NCBI GenBank assembly: GCA_003523055.1
Contig: DPHC01000002.1
Coordinates: 282,041-346,040 of the forward strand
Source: Dehalococcoidia bacterium
GTDB lineage: Bacteria > Chloroflexota > Dehalococcoidia > Lucifugimonadales > UBA3495
Direction of reading: 5' to 3'
Length of the DNA: 64,000 bases
Part shown: piece by piece, positions 1,476 through 38,141 of the stretch
Numbering within the stretch: the stretch's first letter is position 1
Layout: every line of letters begins with the position of its first letter
The notes under the pieces: generated by a model
What the model saw: only the letters and a program-made list of their open reading frames with translations
The model's database searches: none
What the model was told of the DNA's origin: nothing
Program-made: the position numbers and the translations under genes

Positions 1476-2519
1476 GTGAGTACAACCATATTAGGTATTG
1501 AAACCTCCTGTGACGACACAGCGGTATCAATCGTTCAAGACGGGAACTTAATAAAATCAAATATTATCGCTTCACAATCCGACTTACATGCACAGCATGG
1601 TGGAATAGTGCCAGAATTGGCATCGAGACAACACATCAGAGACATAATGCCTGTAATAGAAATAGCTCTTAAAGAATCCGATTTGGGACTCGATGAATTA
1701 GATATCATTGCATCAACATATGGACCCGGATTAGCTGGTTCTTTAATTACTGGGCTAAACGTAGGTAAAACACTTGCGATGTCACTTGGAAAACCATTCT
1801 ATGGAGTCAATCACTTAGAAGGACATGTATATGCTGCTTGGTTAGACAAAGAAATCGGCCCCGACCAAGAACTAGGATTCCCAATATTGTCTCTCATAGC
1901 TTCAGGAGGACACACAGACCTAGTTTTGATGACCAAACACGGTGAATACTTATTGATAGGCAACACTTTAGATGACGCTGCTGGAGAATGCTTTGATAAA
2001 GCTGCAAGGATTTTGGGGCTGGGATTTCCTGGAGGTCCGGAAATCCAGAAAATATCAGGAGATCATATAAGTGAATTAATTCTACCGAGAGCATGGCTAC
2101 GAGATACATTTAATTTTAGTTTCAGTGGTTTAAAAACTGCTGTCCTAAAAATGGCTATAGACAAACTTGTATACCCTTTCGACCAGGATTCTCTGACAGA
2201 ATTAGAACGAGGCATCCTTGTGAAAGAAATAGCATCTGCATTCCAAGAATCCGTAGTAGATATTTTGTCACAAAAAGTTCGAGATGCCGCGAAGGCATAT
2301 TCTGCGAAAGGGATTATATTAGGAGGAGGAGTGGCTGCTAATCTACCTCTTCGCCAGAGAGTTACCGATATAGCTACAGTGCCTGTATACATTCCTGAAC
2401 CAAAACTATGCACAGACAATGGCGCTATGATAGCAGCTTGTGCTTACTTCCAGCAACAACGAGAGGAACCTTGGAGTTTAACTACCGACATATTCCCAGG
2501 TTTAAAAATACATAAATAA
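1476..2519 (+). CDS. tsaD: tRNA N6-adenosine threonylcarbamoyltransferase TsaD (Kae1/Gcp family)
   Basis: 347 aa with a GTG start. Family hallmarks are GIETSCDDTAV, GVNHLEGH and SGGHT, plus a C-terminal TDNGAMIA. Confidence 0.95.
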   Translation: MSTTILGIETSCDDTAVSIVQDGNLIKSNIIASQSDLHAQHGGIVPELASRQHIRDIMPVIEIALKESDLGLDELDIIASTYGPGLAGSLITGLNVGKTLAMSLGKPFYGVNHLEGHVYAAWLDKEIGPDQELGFPILSLIASGGHTDLVLMTKHGEYLLIGNTLDDAAGECFDKAARILGLGFPGGPEIQKISGDHISELILPRAWLRDTFNFSFSGLKTAVLKMAIDKLVYPFDQDSLTELERGILVKEIASAFQESVVDILSQKVRDAAKAYSAKGIILGGGVAANLPLRQRVTDIATVPVYIPEPKLCTDNGAMIAACAYFQQQREEPWSLTTDIFPGLKIHK

Positions 2520-3124: not shown

Positions 3125-3130
3125 TTATCT

Positions 3131-3389
3131 AAACGCGTCGAAAGAGACGAGTAGCAAGCGATATGAGTTAAGCGAGTCTGGTATGGTGTAAGCAGACACT
3201 ACAATCCTTGCGAATATCACTCTGGAGCGGCCTGCTGAAATCACAAAAGTAAGCTAGGACGGGAATCGTAATCCGTAAAATATTACGCGGCATGATAGTG
3301 TCGTTATGAAGAGGCTTTGCATAAATGCAAAGCAATTAGGGTGGTACCGCGGGAAAATCCCGTCCCTTGTATTAGGGGCGGGATTTTTT
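3131..3389 (+). promoter_or_regulatory. T-box riboswitch leader (probable Ile specifier AUC) controlling ilvB
   Basis: The conserved T-box sequence AATTAGGGTGGTACCGCG is at 3334-3351. Stem I elements are AGAGA (3143-47), AGTA (3150-53) and a distal GGTATGGTGTAA loop. Stem III is GCTTTGCA/TGCAAAGC (3314-3333). A terminator follows at 3354-3389. In my hand fold, helices GCAAG/CTTGC and AGAG/CTCT flank a specifier loop whose 3' side reads GAA-T-ATC-A. Confidence 0.85.
3354..3389 (+). terminator. intrinsic terminator of the T-box expression platform
   Basis: AAAATCCCGTCCC (3354-66) pairs with GGGGCGGGATTTT (3375-87), with one G-U pair. A T6 run follows. The 5' arm overlaps the T-box antiterminator region. 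Confidence 0.85.
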
Positions 3390-3418
3390 AATTCAAATTT
3401 GCCTCTCTGGAGATAGAA

Positions 3419-5116
3419 GTGAAACTTAAGGGCGCGGAAATAGTTTGTGAAAGTTTGATAAAAGAGGGAGTCGATGTCTTATTTGGACATCCCGGGGGAG
3501 CAATTCTTCCATTTTATGACGCTTTATGGAGTTATCCACAGCTTAAACACATTTTAGTTAGGCACGAACAATCGGCAGCTCATGCAGCTGACGGATATGC
3601 TCGCATCACTGGCAAACCAGGCGTTTGCGTAGCAACATCAGGTCCTGGAGCGACCAATCTAGTAACAGGAATAATGGGAGCAAAAGCAGATTCTGTCCCT
3701 TTAGTCGCGATTACCGGCCAAGTTGCAAGATCAGCATTGGGCTCTGAAGCATTCCAAGAATGCGATATATGTTCCATAGCAGCAGCCTGCACCAAACGAA
3801 CTTTTCTAGTTATGTCAACTGACGACCTGGCGGAAACCATACACGAAGCTTTCCAAGTTGCCCAAGAAGGCAGGCCCGGGCCTGTATTAATCGATATTCC
3901 ACGCGATGTGCAGCTAGAATTAGCAGAATTTGTTTACCCTGAAATCAAACCAGTTCAAATCCCAACAGTCAGCGCTGAAACTAAAATGAAATTACCTGAC
4001 GCAGCGCGGCTGATCAATCAAGCTGAGCGACCTGTTATTATAGCTGGACATGGCGTATTGATTTCCAAGGCAGACGAAGAACTAATACAATTATCTGACA
4101 AAACCGGCATCCCAGTAATAAATACCCTCCTAGGGTTAAGCAACTTTCCAAGAAACCATAGCATGTCATTGGGAATGCTTGGCATGCATGGAATGTACTG
4201 GTCCAATATGGCTACAGACCAAGCAGATGTAATATTTGGAGTAGGAATGCGATTCGACGACAGAGTAACAGGGAATACAGCTGCTTTCGCTCCTCATGCA
4301 AGAATTATACATCTTGATGTAGAACCCTCTCAAATTGGCAGAAATGTACCAACTGAAGTTGGATTACCTGGGGATGCTAAAGCTGTGTTAAAAGAATTAC
4401 TTCCTCTGTTAGAACAAAAAAACCACATTGAATGGGTAGAATCCATAAATAGAATAAAAGAAGAACATCCTTCGTTAGCTATTCCAAAAACAGACAAACT
4501 ACTGGCACAACATGTTTTAAAAGACTTAAATGAAATAATACAAAAAAACCCAAACACTAATGTAGTTACAGGAGTTGGACAGCATCAAATGTGGGCTGCT
4601 CAATTCTTGTTTTTAGACAAATTCAACACGTTTATATCTTCTGGAGGATTAGGAGCTATGGGGTTTGAAATACCAGCCGCATTGGGAGCACAAGTTGCTG
4701 CTCCGGATTCTACTGTGTGGACTATAGCGGGAGATGGAGGATTCCAAATGACATTACAAGAGCTCATGGTTCTTGCACATGAGAATCTCCCAGTAAAAAT
4801 AGTATTATTGAACAATGGTGTACTTGGTATGGTAAAACAATGGCAAGAGATGTATTTCGATGGTCATTTAAATCAAATACCTATGCCTGGCCCGAATTAC
4901 GTAAAACTTGCTGAATCTTACGGTATCCCTGCAGTTCGTGTAACTGAACAAGAAGACGTTTACCAGGCGTTGTTACAAGCTGAACAGCACGATGGGCCAT
5001 ATTTAGTAGAATGCGTTATAGATCCATCAGTAAACGTCTTCCCGATGGTTCCTCCTGGTGGATCTTTACCTGATACATTAGAAGATCCATTAACTAGTGC
5101 AACTTCACCTAATTAA
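3419..5116 (+). CDS. ilvB: acetolactate synthase (acetohydroxyacid synthase) large/catalytic subunit, ThDP-dependent
   Basis: 565 aa with a GTG start. N-terminus is KGAEIVCESLIKEGVDVLFGHPGGAILPFYDAL. The ThDP motif is GDGGFQMTLQEL...NNGVLGMV. It lies downstream of a branched-chain-type T-box. Confidence 0.92.
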   Translation: MKLKGAEIVCESLIKEGVDVLFGHPGGAILPFYDALWSYPQLKHILVRHEQSAAHAADGYARITGKPGVCVATSGPGATNLVTGIMGAKADSVPLVAITGQVARSALGSEAFQECDICSIAAACTKRTFLVMSTDDLAETIHEAFQVAQEGRPGPVLIDIPRDVQLELAEFVYPEIKPVQIPTVSAETKMKLPDAARLINQAERPVIIAGHGVLISKADEELIQLSDKTGIPVINTLLGLSNFPRNHSMSLGMLGMHGMYWSNMATDQADVIFGVGMRFDDRVTGNTAAFAPHARIIHLDVEPSQIGRNVPTEVGLPGDAKAVLKELLPLLEQKNHIEWVESINRIKEEHPSLAIPKTDKLLAQHVLKDLNEIIQKNPNTNVVTGVGQHQMWAAQFLFLDKFNTFISSGGLGAMGFEIPAALGAQVAAPDSTVWTIAGDGGFQMTLQELMVLAHENLPVKIVLLNNGVLGMVKQWQEMYFDGHLNQIPMPGPNYVKLAESYGIPAVRVTEQEDVYQALLQAEQHDGPYLVECVIDPSVNVFPMVPPGGSLPDTLEDPLTSATSPN

Positions 5117-35495: not shown

Positions 35496-35942
35496 TTAGG
35501 GAGATATTATGGTTTTTTTGGACTTTAAAATACCGTACATAGTACCCAGAGCACTCATACTGCCAACATACAAAGGTCCAATGAATATAGCAATCCACAA
35601 CAATGATTGAGTTCTACGTTCCAGATCCATAATTTGGCTTAACACAAGAGCACTAATCACGATAGTAACAGCTGCCAAAACACCCATTATAAGACCAAAT
35701 TTTAAACCAAAGGATCCAGTTGCTTCGATTAATCCGTGCCTTTTTTTTGCTATGATATAACTTCCAACAAACGGACTCAATGGTATAACAAACAATATTG
35801 CAAAATGCACAACTGGCACCGGCAAAAGTATGAAAGACAATGCAGACAGAATAAGCATTATTCCATAAGACATAAAAACAGATTTCAACATATTATTTTT
35901 TTGCTCCTGTGCACCAATATTACTACTTACAAATAATACCAT
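35496..35942 (-). CDS. hypothetical integral membrane protein (about 4 TM)
   Basis: 148-aa hydrophobic ORF directly upstream of the VOC gene. No recognisable family. The start may be an internal Met. Confidence 0.45.
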   Translation of the reverse strand: MVLFVSSNIGAQEQKNNMLKSVFMSYGIMLILSALSFILLPVPVVHFAILFVIPLSPFVGSYIIAKKRHGLIEATGSFGLKFGLIMGVLAAVTIVISALVLSQIMDLERRTQSLLWIAIFIGPLYVGSMSALGTMYGILKSKKTIISP

Positions 35943-36009
35943 ACCCCAATAAAGAGATTTTATAACCTTGCCCCGACGAACATTAATCGAAAGTACAGCT
36001 AATCAGTGT

Positions 36010-36038
36010 TTGACAATTATATTTAACATTATTAAACT
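36010..36038 (+). promoter_or_regulatory. candidate sigma-70 promoter for the moeB-like leader
   Basis: TTGACA (36010-15), a 17-nt spacer, then TAAACT (36033-38). The predicted start would fall at or next to the leader ATG (36045), which implies a leaderless or very short-leader transcript. Confidence 0.35.
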
Positions 36039-36044
36039 GGATAT

Positions 36045-36092
36045 ATGGAAAATAAATTAAACGCCTGTCATTGTATGTATCCTCCTAAATGA
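36045..36092 (+). CDS. candidate 15-codon leader peptide MENKLNACHCMYPPK (two Cys codons)
   Basis: The reading is ATG..TGT CAT TGT ATG..TGA. The stop codon directly abuts GAGGGT (36093-98), which copies the terminator 3' arm. No SD is visible. It has the same architecture as the leader at 37022. Confidence 0.4.
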   Translation: MENKLNACHCMYPPK

Positions 36093-36118
36093 GAGGGTAG
36101 TTACCGTTCGAATTGATT

Positions 36119-36156
36119 AAACACCCTCCTTAACACAAGAGAGGGTGTTTCATTTT
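36119..36156 (+). terminator. intrinsic terminator in the 5' leader of the moeB-like gene
   Basis: AAACACCCTC (36119-28) pairs with GAGGGTGTTT (36141-50), a 10-bp perfect stem. The trailing U-tract TTTCATTTT is interrupted. It lies 33 nt before the ATG at 36189. Confidence 0.65.
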
Positions 36157-36188
36157 AAACCCTAAACAACATATAAAAGGAATAATAA

Positions 36189-37022
36189 ATGAGCCAAAAA
36201 CCAATAGCACTTACTCCTGCCCAAGTTAAAAGATATTCTAGGCACCTCATAATGAACGATGTTGGCAGCGTAGGACAACGAAAACTTTTAGACGCAAAGG
36301 TTTTGATTCTGGGAGCTGGAGGACTAGGCTCGCCTTCTGCAATATATTTAGCACTGGCAGGTGTTGGAACCATTGGGTTAGTTGATTTTGATGTCGTAGA
36401 TTTATCCAATTTACAACGCCAAGTCTTACATCACACTGCAGATGTTGGAAGGCCAAAGCTACAGTCAGCCAAAGATAATATTTTATCGTACAACCCTGAT
36501 ATTAATGTAGTTTTACACGAAACTCGGCTTGAATCTGACAATGCTATGGATATAATTTCAAATTATGACATGGTAATAAACGGAGCCGATAATTTTGCTA
36601 CCCGATATTTGGTAAATGATGCGTGCTACCTATTAGGAAAACCCTTAGTAGATGGAAGTATCTTAATATTCGATGGCCAATCAACATTATTCACACCAGG
36701 CAATGGATGTTATAGGTGCTTATTTCCATCACCTCCTCCTCCTGGTATGGTTCCAAACTGCGCTGAAGCTGGAGTATTAGGGGCCCTAACAGGACTAGTA
36801 GGGAGCATCCAAGCAACTGAAGCATTGAAGTACATTTTGGGTATAGGCCAAAGCTTAGAATCTAGATTATTAATCATAGATGCCTTAAGTATGACATTTA
36901 GAGAATTCAAACTGAGGCGAAACCCTAATTGCCCACTTTGTGGAGACAAGCCTACTGTCACAGAATTAATCGACTACGAAATTTTCTGCGGTATAACTGC
37001 AGACAGCCCTACGATGTCTTAA
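36189..37022 (+). CDS. MoeB/ThiF/HesA family sulfur-carrier-protein adenylyltransferase (E1-like), no rhodanese domain
   Basis: 277 aa. Motifs are RYSRHL, ILGAGGLGSPSAIYLALAGVG, DLSNLQRQ, and the Zn cysteines CYRC and CPLCG. Confidence 0.88.
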   Translation: MSQKPIALTPAQVKRYSRHLIMNDVGSVGQRKLLDAKVLILGAGGLGSPSAIYLALAGVGTIGLVDFDVVDLSNLQRQVLHHTADVGRPKLQSAKDNILSYNPDINVVLHETRLESDNAMDIISNYDMVINGADNFATRYLVNDACYLLGKPLVDGSILIFDGQSTLFTPGNGCYRCLFPSPPPPGMVPNCAEAGVLGALTGLVGSIQATEALKYILGIGQSLESRLLIIDALSMTFREFKLRRNPNCPLCGDKPTVTELIDYEIFCGITADSPTMS

Positions 37023-37090
37023 TGTTGATCCAACAAACACTCTCACATACCTGTTTCGACTGTTGTTGTTGCCACTGTTGTTCTCCGTAA
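37022..37090 (+). CDS. candidate 22-codon Cys-rich leader peptide MLIQQTLSHTCFDCCCCHCCSP
   Basis: The ATG overlaps the moeB-like stop (TAATG). Seven of the last 12 sense codons are TGT/TGC. The TAA stop (37088-90) sits 2 nt before AAGAGGGA, the antiterminator strand. Confidence 0.6.
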   Translation: MLIQQTLSHTCFDCCCCHCCSP

Positions 37091-37119
37091 ACAAGAGGGA
37101 TACATCAACGCATGATTTC

Positions 37120-37154
37120 AAACTCCCTCTTAATAGCAAGAGGGAGTTTTTTTT
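37120..37154 (+). terminator. intrinsic terminator between the moeB-like gene and the cysteine synthase gene
   Basis: AAACTCCCTCTT (37120-31) pairs with AAGAGGGAGTTT (37138-49), a 12-bp perfect stem with a 6-nt loop. The T run extends to 37154. It lies 25 nt before the ATG at 37179. Confidence 0.85.
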
Positions 37155-37178
37155 ACACCAACATCAAGGAATATAAAT

Positions 37179-38141
37179 ATGACTAAAACATTCATTCACA
37201 ACTCGGTTCAGGATAGCATTCTTGATACTATAGGTAATACTCCGATAGTTAAATTAAATCATTGTAGTCCCAATCCTAACGTTGATATTTATGTGAAATT
37301 AGAAGGGCAAAATCCTACTGGATCCGTAAAAGATAGAATAGCACTGAAAATGATTAATGAAGCGGAATTCCATGGAGAAATATCTACCACTCGTACTATT
37401 CTGGAACCCACTAGTGGCAACACTGGAATCTCAATCGCATTAGTAGGGAAACTAAAAGGTTTCAAAGTAAAAGTGGTTATGCCTAGCAATGTAAGTTCAG
37501 AACGTACACAACTCTTAACGGCTTATGGCGCAGACATAGTGTATTCTGAGGGAGAAAAAGGCAGCAACGGTTCAATTGAACTAGCCCAAGATATTCTAAG
37601 TAAAAATCCTGAAGACTATTACATGCCTTACCAGTACGGTAATCAAGCTAATCCACGAGCTCATTATGAAGGAACAGGACCAGAAATTTTAGCAGCAGTC
37701 CCAGACCTAGATGTTTTCATTGCGGGATTAGGGACAGGTGGTACTTTAACAGGTACAGGGCAATATTTAAAAGATAACAACCCTGAAGTAAAAATTGTAG
37801 CGGTTGCTCCAGAGCCAGATGATTTAATATCGGGGTTGCGTAGATTAGAAGATGGATTTATACCTCCAATTTTGGATATAAATGTTTTAGACTCGAGACT
37901 TCTAATAAGCAGCTTTGATGCGTTTAAAACAACAAAAATATTACTAGAAAAAGAAGGTATATTCGCAGGTATTTCTTGTGGTTCAGTGGTATATGGAGCA
38001 ATCAAACAAGCAGAAAGGATGAAATCTGGCAAAATAGTTTGCTTATTGGCCGACGGGGGTTGGAAATACCTAAGTACTAGTCTTTGGACAAAAGACTATC
38101 CCCAACTGGCAGAAGAATCCAAGGGCAAAATTTGGTGGTAA
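37179..38141 (+). CDS. cysteine synthase (PLP-dependent O-acetylserine/O-phosphoserine sulfhydrylase, CysK/CysM family)
   Basis: 320 aa. The PLP lysine is in NPTGSVKDR. It also has TSGNTGISIA and GTGGTLTG. I cannot separate CysK from CysM by eye. Confidence 0.9.
   Translation: MTKTFIHNSVQDSILDTIGNTPIVKLNHCSPNPNVDIYVKLEGQNPTGSVKDRIALKMINEAEFHGEISTTRTILEPTSGNTGISIALVGKLKGFKVKVVMPSNVSSERTQLLTAYGADIVYSEGEKGSNGSIELAQDILSKNPEDYYMPYQYGNQANPRAHYEGTGPEILAAVPDLDVFIAGLGTGGTLTGTGQYLKDNNPEVKIVAVAPEPDDLISGLRRLEDGFIPPILDINVLDSRLLISSFDAFKTTKILLEKEGIFAGISCGSVVYGAIKQAERMKSGKIVCLLADGGWKYLSTSLWTKDYPQLAEESKGKIWW

Follow-up and report, generated by a model that had tools for sequence, protein, structure and literature searches.

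Attenuation of transcription through the translation of a leader peptide is known chiefly from operons responding to Trp, His, Leu, Thr, Ile/Val and Phe, most of the documented cases coming from Proteobacteria, Actinobacteria and some Firmicutes (PMC2965389). For cysteine, attenuation mediated by an upstream open reading frame (uORF) was called undescribed until then by the authors of a mycobacterial study of 2020 (10.1101/834739). These authors demonstrated experimentally that polycysteine, leaderless small ORFs (sORFs) attenuate cysteine operons of Mycobacterium smegmatis at the level of translation (Canestrari et al. 2020, 10.1101/834739): at Ms5788A, the pausing of the ribosome at the Cys codons unmasks the Shine-Dalgarno (SD) sequence, and no terminator takes part (10.1101/834739). 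The uORFC-8-2 motif found upstream of cysS in Rhodobacterales is a predicted attenuator with two tandem Cys codons in its first stem and an intrinsic terminator (Brewer et al. 2021, PMC8632094), and candidate Cys leader peptides had been proposed earlier for the cys/cbs operons of Actinobacteria, where neither terminators nor alternative hairpins were detected (Seliverstov et al. 2005, PMC1262725). The present analysis concerns a 64-kb stretch of DNA (the window; all positions are window coordinates) from a low-GC (37.5%), uncultured marine Dehalococcoidia bacterium of the phylum Chloroflexota and, within it, the short segment that separates the genes thiF and cysM. This intercistronic element is considered, with a probability of roughly three in four, to be a ribosome-mediated transcription attenuator that reads charged tRNA-Cys and gates the passage from thiF into cysM. 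A preliminary description of the locus had mentioned Cys leader peptides only as sparse computational predictions, and missed the cases documented in mycobacteria, in other Actinobacteria and upstream of cysS in Rhodobacterales.

The components of the element and the two genes that flank it are the following.

36189..37022, forward strand: thiF, encoding a ThiF/MoeB/MoeZ-type E1-like adenylyltransferase (277 aa, no rhodanese domain)
37022..37090, forward strand: leader sORF2, MLIQQTLSHTCFDCCCCHCCSP, 22 codons, stop codon TAA at 37088-90
37090..37110, forward strand: region 2, core AAGAGGGA at 37093-37100; its alternative partners are the Cys run or UCCCUCUU
37120..37154, forward strand: intrinsic terminator; region 3 AAACUCCCUCUU at 37120-31, loop at 37132-37, region 4 AAGAGGGAGUUU at 37138-49, T8 at 37147-54
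37166..38141, forward strand: cysM-type cysteine synthase gene with its SD sequence (AAGGAA, 37166-71); ATG at 37179, 320 aa

The ATG of sORF2 (37022-24) shares one base with the thiF stop codon (TAA, 37020-22), thus forming a TAATG junction, and no GGAGG-like SD sequence is present 5' of it; since it begins within the operon, at the thiF stop, sORF2 is not leaderless. Its Cys codons (37052-54, 37061-72 and 37076-81) account for seven of the last 12 sense codons, so that the 22-codon ORF without SD reported in the preliminary description proved exact in its coordinates. Such a concentration of at least six Cys codons in a 12-codon stretch occurs once in the six frames of the 64 kb, against an expectation of 0.01 derived from 100 dinucleotide shuffles. 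The only other CCCC stretch in the window (at about 49054, reverse strand) was discarded, as it runs antisense inside a gene of 276 aa, and so was a hairpin at 2404-2434 (reverse strand) preceded by an ORF with the sequence ...SSRCCWK, which is weak (-7.5 kcal/mol).

The Cys run (37061-37082) doubles as region 1 of an RNA with mutually exclusive pairings. The octamer AAGAGGGA, located shortly after the sORF2 stop, is a copy of the core of the terminator 3' arm (AAGAGGGAGTTT, 37138-49) and is complementary to TCCCTCTT at 37124-31 (UCCCUCUU in RNA form), with which it would form an antiterminator; both the copy and its partner were found where they had first been described. The same applies to the terminator (37120-37149), a perfect 12-bp stem with a 6-nt loop followed by the T-run, which yields -17.0 kcal/mol when folded alone. 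The arrangement is uncommon in the window: three of the four matches to AAGAGGGA on both strands fall within the intercistronic element, an 8-nt upstream copy of the 3' arm accompanies only two of the 64 terminator-like hairpins, and the 151-nt region folds with a z-score of -3.4. In addition, the Cys run is predicted to pair with the post-stop segment in a 1:2 hairpin (-16.3 kcal/mol for the window segment), and this modelled pairing completes the classical four-region architecture. The 1:2 hairpin had been overlooked in the preliminary description, as had a second Cys attenuator before thiF (see below).

Relatives of the locus were collected with CysM as the query in one genome scan and one metagenome scan, which provided eight loci whose CysM is 84-98% identical. 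Counting the window, this makes a low-GC set of nine sequences, seven of them distinct, that represent four lineages with the following leader peptides.

Window and L014: MLIQQTLSHTCF(D/N)CCCCHCCSP
L001 and L011: MISASLSGCNLICCCLCSPL
L002 and L013: MIVSACKLICCRCTSM
L003, L010 and L012: MDI(C/Y)KTYT(Y/S)(K/N)ATCCCLCTPL

A short ORF of 16-22 codons opens at the thiF stop, through TAATG or TAAATG, in all four lineages (orthologues MISASLSGCNLICCCLCSPL, MIVSACKLICCRCTSM and MDICKTYTYKATCCCLCTPL), and in all four a Cys cluster of the form CC(C)xC lies 2-4 codons before the stop. The leader contains seven Cys codons in the window and four or five in the other lineages, the run being CCCCHCC in the former and CCC or CC in the orthologues, and Ser/Thr-Pro follows it in three lineages. 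The N-terminal halves of the peptides are unrelated in sequence and unequal in length; the features kept are an ORF that opens at the thiF stop, the frame in which it is read, the CC(C)xC run and the position of the stop. Region 2 invariably begins 5-6 nt past the first base of the stop codon, inside the footprint of a terminating ribosome, and a T tract of 6-8 T is found 53-60 nt after the stop in every lineage. The inspection of related thiF-cysM gaps that the preliminary description had proposed as a check thus recovered the short ORF, the Cys run and the alternative stems in each of the four low-GC lineages. A 24-codon ORF at 37112-37186 (MISNSLLIARGSFFYTNIKEYKYD), which begins 11 nt after GAGGGA, crosses the terminator and overlaps the cysM start, was also considered as a second reading frame; it has a counterpart in L001 only, not in L002 or L003, and is probably incidental.

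The stems themselves vary in sequence (AAACUCCCUCUU/AAGAGGGAGUUU in the window; AAGCCCUCU/AGAGGGCUU, AAAGCCCUCUUG/UAAGAGGGCUUU and GAGCCCUCU/AGAGGGCUU in the others). MAFFT misaligned the terminator arms between lineages, and its alignment was therefore not used for counting pairs; the invariant CCCTCT/AGAGGG cores were anchored instead. In region 3, the base immediately 5' of the invariant CCCUCU core is U in the window, the other lineages having G, and its partner in region 4 changes to match it (A or C). Its partner in region 2 reads A in the window and, in L001 and L003, C; the region 2 of L002 stops short of this base. A switch would be expected to leave just such a trace, a substitution matched by the partners in both of its alternative helices; considering that four related lineages represent few independent events, this covariation is supportive, not statistically decisive.

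These data bear on the possibility that the hairpin does no more than terminate thiF constitutively, perhaps with some leakage, both the Cys-rich ORF and the copy of the arm being incidental to a TGT-rich stretch of low complexity. Indeed, the run TGTTGTTGTTGCCACTGTTGTT is repeat-like, its other frames reading as Val or Leu runs, and the terminator is always thermodynamically favored when region 4 is present. However, in four out of four lineages it is the Cys frame that the ATG at the thiF stop opens, the Cys run, the position of the stop and the spacing of region 2 persist amid diverging sequence, and the changes in the terminator are mirrored in region 2. An efficient terminator at this place would also silence an essential biosynthetic gene, because cysM has no space for a promoter of its own: the T tract is followed by the cysM ATG after only about 24 nt, and no conserved -10/-35 hexamers were found in the 24 nt 3' of the terminator. 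The expression of cysM must thus depend on readthrough. Since, moreover, a second element of like design with Cys codons precedes thiF, a plain terminator was considered an unlikely explanation.

A different account would be that sORF2 encodes a functional Cys-rich micropeptide, with a role in metal or Fe-S binding or in redox chemistry, or serving as a precursor modified by the E1-like enzyme, and that the hairpin is a terminator internal to the operon. Motifs of the CC(C)xC type are typical metal ligands, the neighbouring ThiF is E1-like and its C-terminal part gives weak, sub-threshold matches to TOMM docking/cyclodehydratase models; a function of the peptide was not excluded in the mycobacterial study either (10.1101/834739). 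Against this, the sequence and length (16-22 aa) of the peptide beyond the Cys run, and beyond the Ser/Thr-Pro of three lineages, vary between lineages whose CysM proteins are about 85% identical, no YcaO, cyclodehydratase, protease or exporter gene lies nearby, and the ThiF-cysM pair is kept without any peptide in seven of the seven GC-rich relatives sampled. The distance from the stop to region 2 and the 1:2 and 2:3 pairings are, in turn, RNA features that a peptide leaves unexplained. A micropeptide, which the preliminary description had entertained as an alternative, therefore appears distinctly improbable: what is conserved is the Cys run and the segments that pair in the RNA, with no maturation enzymes around them.

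Folding in the presence of a ribosome was modelled for the proposed transcription attenuator. The folds were computed on a transcript cut just before region 4, the state at which the RNA polymerase must decide, and the ribosome was represented by masking all mRNA as far as 13 nt beyond the first nucleotide of the A-site codon; the footprint size used for masking is general knowledge. With the mask at any Cys codon of the run, every one of the four lineages had the 2:3 antiterminator as its minimum-energy structure (-10.7 kcal/mol for the window and -12.0 to -15.9 kcal/mol for the others), and this structure disappeared when the mask was placed at the stop codon (0 to -1.4 kcal/mol). Once region 4 was included, the terminator became the predicted minimum-energy structure, with energies of -13.8 to -17.0 kcal/mol for the terminators of the four lineages. 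In the complete leader free of ribosomes, all four lineages were predicted to form the 1:2 hairpin (-11 to -16 kcal/mol for the segment) together with the terminator. The geometry is thus the classical one, in which a ribosome at the stop masks region 2 and one on the Cys codons masks region 1 only. Folding with the masked ribosome reproduced the proposed switch in each lineage and, together with the conservation across the four lineages, supports the trp-type attenuator acting on Cys codons that the preliminary description had put forward.

The experimentally dissected precedent, Ms5788A, acts on translation, being the only Cys sORF for which this has been done, and it could be asked whether the present leader likewise controls translation, by SD sequestration or translational coupling, as the mycobacterial polycysteine sORFs do. 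In the Dehalococcoidia locus, however, the SD of cysM (37166-71) lies outside both alternative hairpins, the Cys tract pairing with region 2 and not with the SD, and a canonical intrinsic terminator with 6-8 T is present in every lineage. Furthermore, the T-box of the ilvB gene in the same genome is followed by a terminator-like hairpin (AATCCCGTCCC...GGGGCGGGATTTTTT) and a T tract (3129-3390 in all), which backs the idea that terminator-based RNA control works in this organism. Translational control was accordingly rated as highly improbable. The T-box leader itself (3129-3370; Rfam RF00230, 131.5 bits) is located 5' of ilvB, the acetolactate synthase large subunit gene (3419-5116).

Further support for a transcription attenuator came from the region upstream of thiF, where a second candidate element was identified.

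36010..36038, forward strand: predicted sigma-70-type operon promoter; TTGACA at 36010-15, 17-nt spacer, TAAACT at 36033-38; score 10/12
36045..36092, forward strand: leader sORF1, MENKLNACHCMYPPK, 15 codons; Cys codons at 36066-68 and 36072-74
36091..36156, forward strand: attenuator 1 RNA; region 2 GAGAGGGU at 36091-98, region 3 ACCCUC at 36123-28, hairpin at 36119-36150, then UUUCAUUUU

The whole of this second element spans 36010-36156, outside the coordinates covered by the preliminary description. Exactly 6 nt separate the -10 hexamer from the sORF1 ATG at 36045, and the same hexamers, 17-nt spacer and 6-nt gap recur in all four low-GC lineages, the bases of the gap being different. Given this invariant gap, transcription is predicted to begin at the AUG or directly beside it, that is, sORF1 would be leaderless, a prediction made from the sequences. 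A C-x-C pair is kept in the sORF1 orthologues (MKQIIVNCACTKLHM, MKQINVICACMSLCT and MKQISVICACMNLQT). Region 1 corresponds here to the last sORF1 codons (CCUCCU, 36081-86), whose CCUCC pairs with a GGAGGGU-type segment situated at or just past the stop. Region 2 overlaps the TGA stop and has as its alternative partner ACCCUCC, which is the 5' arm of the hairpin, the post-stop segment being a copy of the terminator 3' arm. Across the low-GC lineages the terminator hairpin folds with -16.5 to -20.8 kcal/mol and is followed by a short U tract; 2:3 pairing is predicted in all of them when the ribosome is masked on the Cys codons (-9.6 to -10.9 kcal/mol) and falls to between 0 and -1.3 kcal/mol when it is masked at the stop. 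The switching segments of attenuator 1 (36081-36098 and 36120-36131) resemble an SD/anti-SD pair: its region 2 is GGAGGGU-like, and region 3 of the window, ACACCCUCCUUA, is similar to the 16S rRNA 3' end.

The distribution of both elements was followed in a set of GC-rich relatives, six of which (54-56% GC, 70-75% CysM identity) were informative for the region upstream of thiF and seven for the thiF-cysM gap. Upstream of thiF, the six present TTGACA-17-TAGACT followed, after 10-11 nt, by an ATG. A 17-codon sORF ending in ...C-x-C-P-x-T before the stop is found in five of them, the sixth (L007) having a single Cys (VCTSPRS, then the stop). Each of the six can also form 1:2 and, alternatively, 2:3 pairings and has a GC-rich terminator accompanied by a T tract. 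RNAalifold recovered the 1:2 hairpin and the terminator in these sequences, with one terminator pair being A-U in three of them and G-C in the other three, and the 2:3 helix was paired in 96% of cells, compared with 28-57% when the partner was slid by 1-3 columns. In the thiF-cysM gap of the seven GC-rich loci (41-220 nt), neither a Cys sORF nor a terminator was found. An additional difference concerns an Rrf2-family regulator gene that lies directly 5' of thiF-cysM in six of the seven GC-rich relatives, the contig of the seventh (L009) starting at thiF.

L004, 1279-1707: Rrf2-family gene
L007, 1343-1810: Rrf2-family gene
L015, 617-1036: Rrf2-family gene
L017, 825-1253: Rrf2-family gene
L018, 34-465: Rrf2-family gene
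L019, 791-1219: Rrf2-family gene

No Rrf2 homologue was detectable in the 64-kb window or in the sampled flanks of the low-GC loci, and its absence beside them suggests a changed regulatory strategy. Judged by what is present or absent in limited flanks, the simplest history would be an ancestral 5' attenuator, to which the low-GC marine clade added a Cys-richer intercistronic one while losing the adjacent Rrf2 gene.

From the observed sequence features, their conservation and the predicted alternative folds, a mechanism can be inferred that would involve reinitiation, stalling, termination and a response to cysteine. Briefly, transcription would start at about 36045, and attenuator 1, with its two Cys codons, would decide whether the polymerase enters thiF. 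The ribosome that terminates on thiF would then reinitiate at the overlapping AUG of sORF2, a step proposed because the TAATG/TAAATG junction is conserved and no SD is present. When Cys-tRNA is ample, this ribosome would pass the seven Cys codons and reach the UAA at 37088, where its footprint would cover AAGAGGGA; after its release, the Cys run would pair with region 2 (1:2). The terminator (37120-37149) would form, the polymerase would halt at T8 and no cysM transcript would be made. When Cys-tRNA is scarce, the ribosome would stall within 37052-37081, occupying region 1 and leaving region 2 free to pair with UCCCUCUU (37124-31) as soon as the latter is made; no terminator would then form, and the polymerase would read through into cysM. 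The operon would thus contain two Cys checkpoints, one of two codons for thiF plus cysM and one of seven codons for cysM alone. Under such a two-tier arrangement, thiF would be more easily expressed than cysM; more than one sulfur carrier may depend on an E1 of this type. It can also be speculated that a sensing ribosome delivered by the upstream gene would make a synchronising polymerase pause site needless.

The attenuator is further favored by the role of the gene under control, which makes cysteine, and by the separate element before thiF, which has Cys codons and works by like logic and is conserved in relatives down to 70% CysM identity. Several points weigh against it, beginning with the fact that all the evidence is computational and that the host is an uncultured, metagenome-assembled genome. 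At equilibrium, the terminator equals or exceeds the antiterminator in stability in the window and in L002, and falls slightly below it in L001 and L003 (-13.8 and -16.5 kcal/mol, versus -14.2 to -15.9 kcal/mol for the antiterminator). The switch must therefore be kinetic, a property that is shared with the classical systems. The truncated, ribosome-free transcript of L001 and L003 already favors the 2:3 pairing, so that the predicted 1:2 hairpin is not uniformly decisive, and the logic common to all lineages is that region 2 is covered by a ribosome at the stop and left free by one on the Cys run. Reinitiation without an SD is assumed. Cysteine starvation would slow the translation of thiF too, as this gene contains several Cys codons, and could uncouple the ribosome from the polymerase. 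Finally, the covariation in the sequences involves few independent events, the intercistronic element being found in only four related lineages.

The two genes of the operon fit a common pathway. An E1 of the ThiF type activates the sulfur carrier CysO, which is used by CysM, as known from work on M. tuberculosis. The ThiF-family protein matches Pfam PF00899 (E = 1e-82) and the NCBIfam models MoeB, MoeZ and UbaA, and the cysM product matches Pfam PALP and NCBIfam cysKM. The closest solved structures to the latter are those of M. tuberculosis CysM, an O-phosphoserine sulfhydrylase (3dki, 3dwg and 3dwi; E = 5e-83, full-length alignment). In all sampled relatives thiF adjoins cysM, and the gene order ThiF-CysM-NusA is kept in every one whose contig reaches that far. 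No ORF of 55-130 aa ending in GG, as expected for a CysO/ThiS/MoaD-like carrier, was found in the 64-kb window when ATG starts were considered, and the carrier gene implied by the ThiF-CysM pair presumably sits elsewhere in the genome. The nearby products are the MoeB/MoeZ-type ThiF, of canonical type, CysM, NusA, a membrane protein and a glyoxalase-family protein. A predicted membrane protein (148 aa, without Pfam match) is encoded at 35496-35942 on the reverse strand, divergently from the thiF promoter, and its gene fills the place that the Rrf2 gene and others hold in the GC-rich relatives.

A wider notion is that of a protein-free, two-tier sensing of cysteine acting throughout the Chloroflexota on the CysO-type (ThiF plus CysM) pathway, with a 5', near-leaderless C-x-C tier and an intercistronic tier in low-GC members. 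The odds of this broader proposal were judged to be even. Under it, the first tier would be conserved from GC-rich, SAR202-like relatives to the low-GC marine Dehalococcoidia. The second would be a higher-gain tier restricted to the low-GC clade, where no adjacent Rrf2 gene is present, and would receive its ribosome through termination-reinitiation and not through an SD or a pause site. If this broader proposal holds, it would represent the first family of leader-peptide attenuators in Chloroflexota and the first terminator-type Cys attenuator of a cysteine-biosynthesis gene, as well as a rare case of a ribosome-mediated attenuator inside an operon. The placement of cysM 24 nt behind a strong terminator would find an explanation, and the sensing ribosome would be loaded in two unusual ways, by leaderless initiation and by reinitiation where the upstream gene stops, in tiers that differ in the number of regulatory codons. 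The distribution of the elements suggests that an RNA switch was added in a low-GC lineage that no longer shows an Rrf2 regulator gene beside the operon. For annotators, the locus would provide two unannotated sORFs and two RNA elements to be modelled.

How, then, does the locus compare with the systems described so far? Literature searches, whose incomplete coverage makes them weak evidence, returned no leader-peptide attenuator from Chloroflexota or Dehalococcoidia; with the same limitation, they returned no terminator-type Cys attenuator of a cysteine-biosynthesis gene and none coupled to an upstream stop. An Rfam scan of the window region and nine related loci at the gathering score matched no family, and a permissive scan of 35900-37300 (E up to 10) gave chance-level matches only, among them PyrG_leader, whose 23.6 bits are below its gathering score of 65. 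Rrf2-family (CymR/IscR-like) control addresses the same class of targets but relies on a protein repressor, not on an RNA switch.

With the mycobacterial sORFs (Ms5788A and others), the Dehalococcoidia elements share being unannotated small ORFs with a C-terminal Cys run upstream of cysteine-metabolism genes, as well as the occurrence of several such sORFs per genome, the pausing on Cys codons as the sensor (here proposed) and, for sORF1, the predicted leaderless start. They differ from them in having a terminator and an antiterminator, in the coupling of sORF2 to thiF and in belonging to an unrelated phylum, with no detectable homology. The uORFC-8-2 motif is likewise a predicted ribosome-mediated transcription attenuator with Cys codons in the first stem and a terminator, but it targets cysteinyl-tRNA synthetase from a 5' untranslated region (UTR), contains two Cys codons, occurs in Alphaproteobacteria and is a prediction only. 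The leaders proposed in Actinobacteria present runs of Cys codons near the stop and also precede cysteine genes; in contrast to them, the terminator and the alternative hairpins are present and conserved here. The sensing of Cys codons by leader ORFs was therefore already known, and within the literature searched the terminator-type precedent is the cysS prediction only.

As in the classical attenuators of E. coli and Salmonella (trpL, hisL, leuL, thrL, ilvL and pheL), codons for the end product are placed in a short ORF, the 1:2, 2:3 and 3:4 pairings are exclusive, with 3:4 being an intrinsic terminator, and a ribosome at the stop blocks the antiterminator that a stalled ribosome sets free. 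Unlike in them, the codons are for Cys, the leader is intercistronic and devoid of SD, with an AUG that overlaps the upstream stop, the host belongs to the Chloroflexota, and the Rfam scans revealed no sequence similarity to any leader family. In sum, a classical leader ORF lies in the 5' UTR with its own ribosome-binding site, whereas sORF2 lies between two cistrons and has no SD of its own; in every other structural trait that could be examined, the intercistronic element is that of a classical transcription attenuator.

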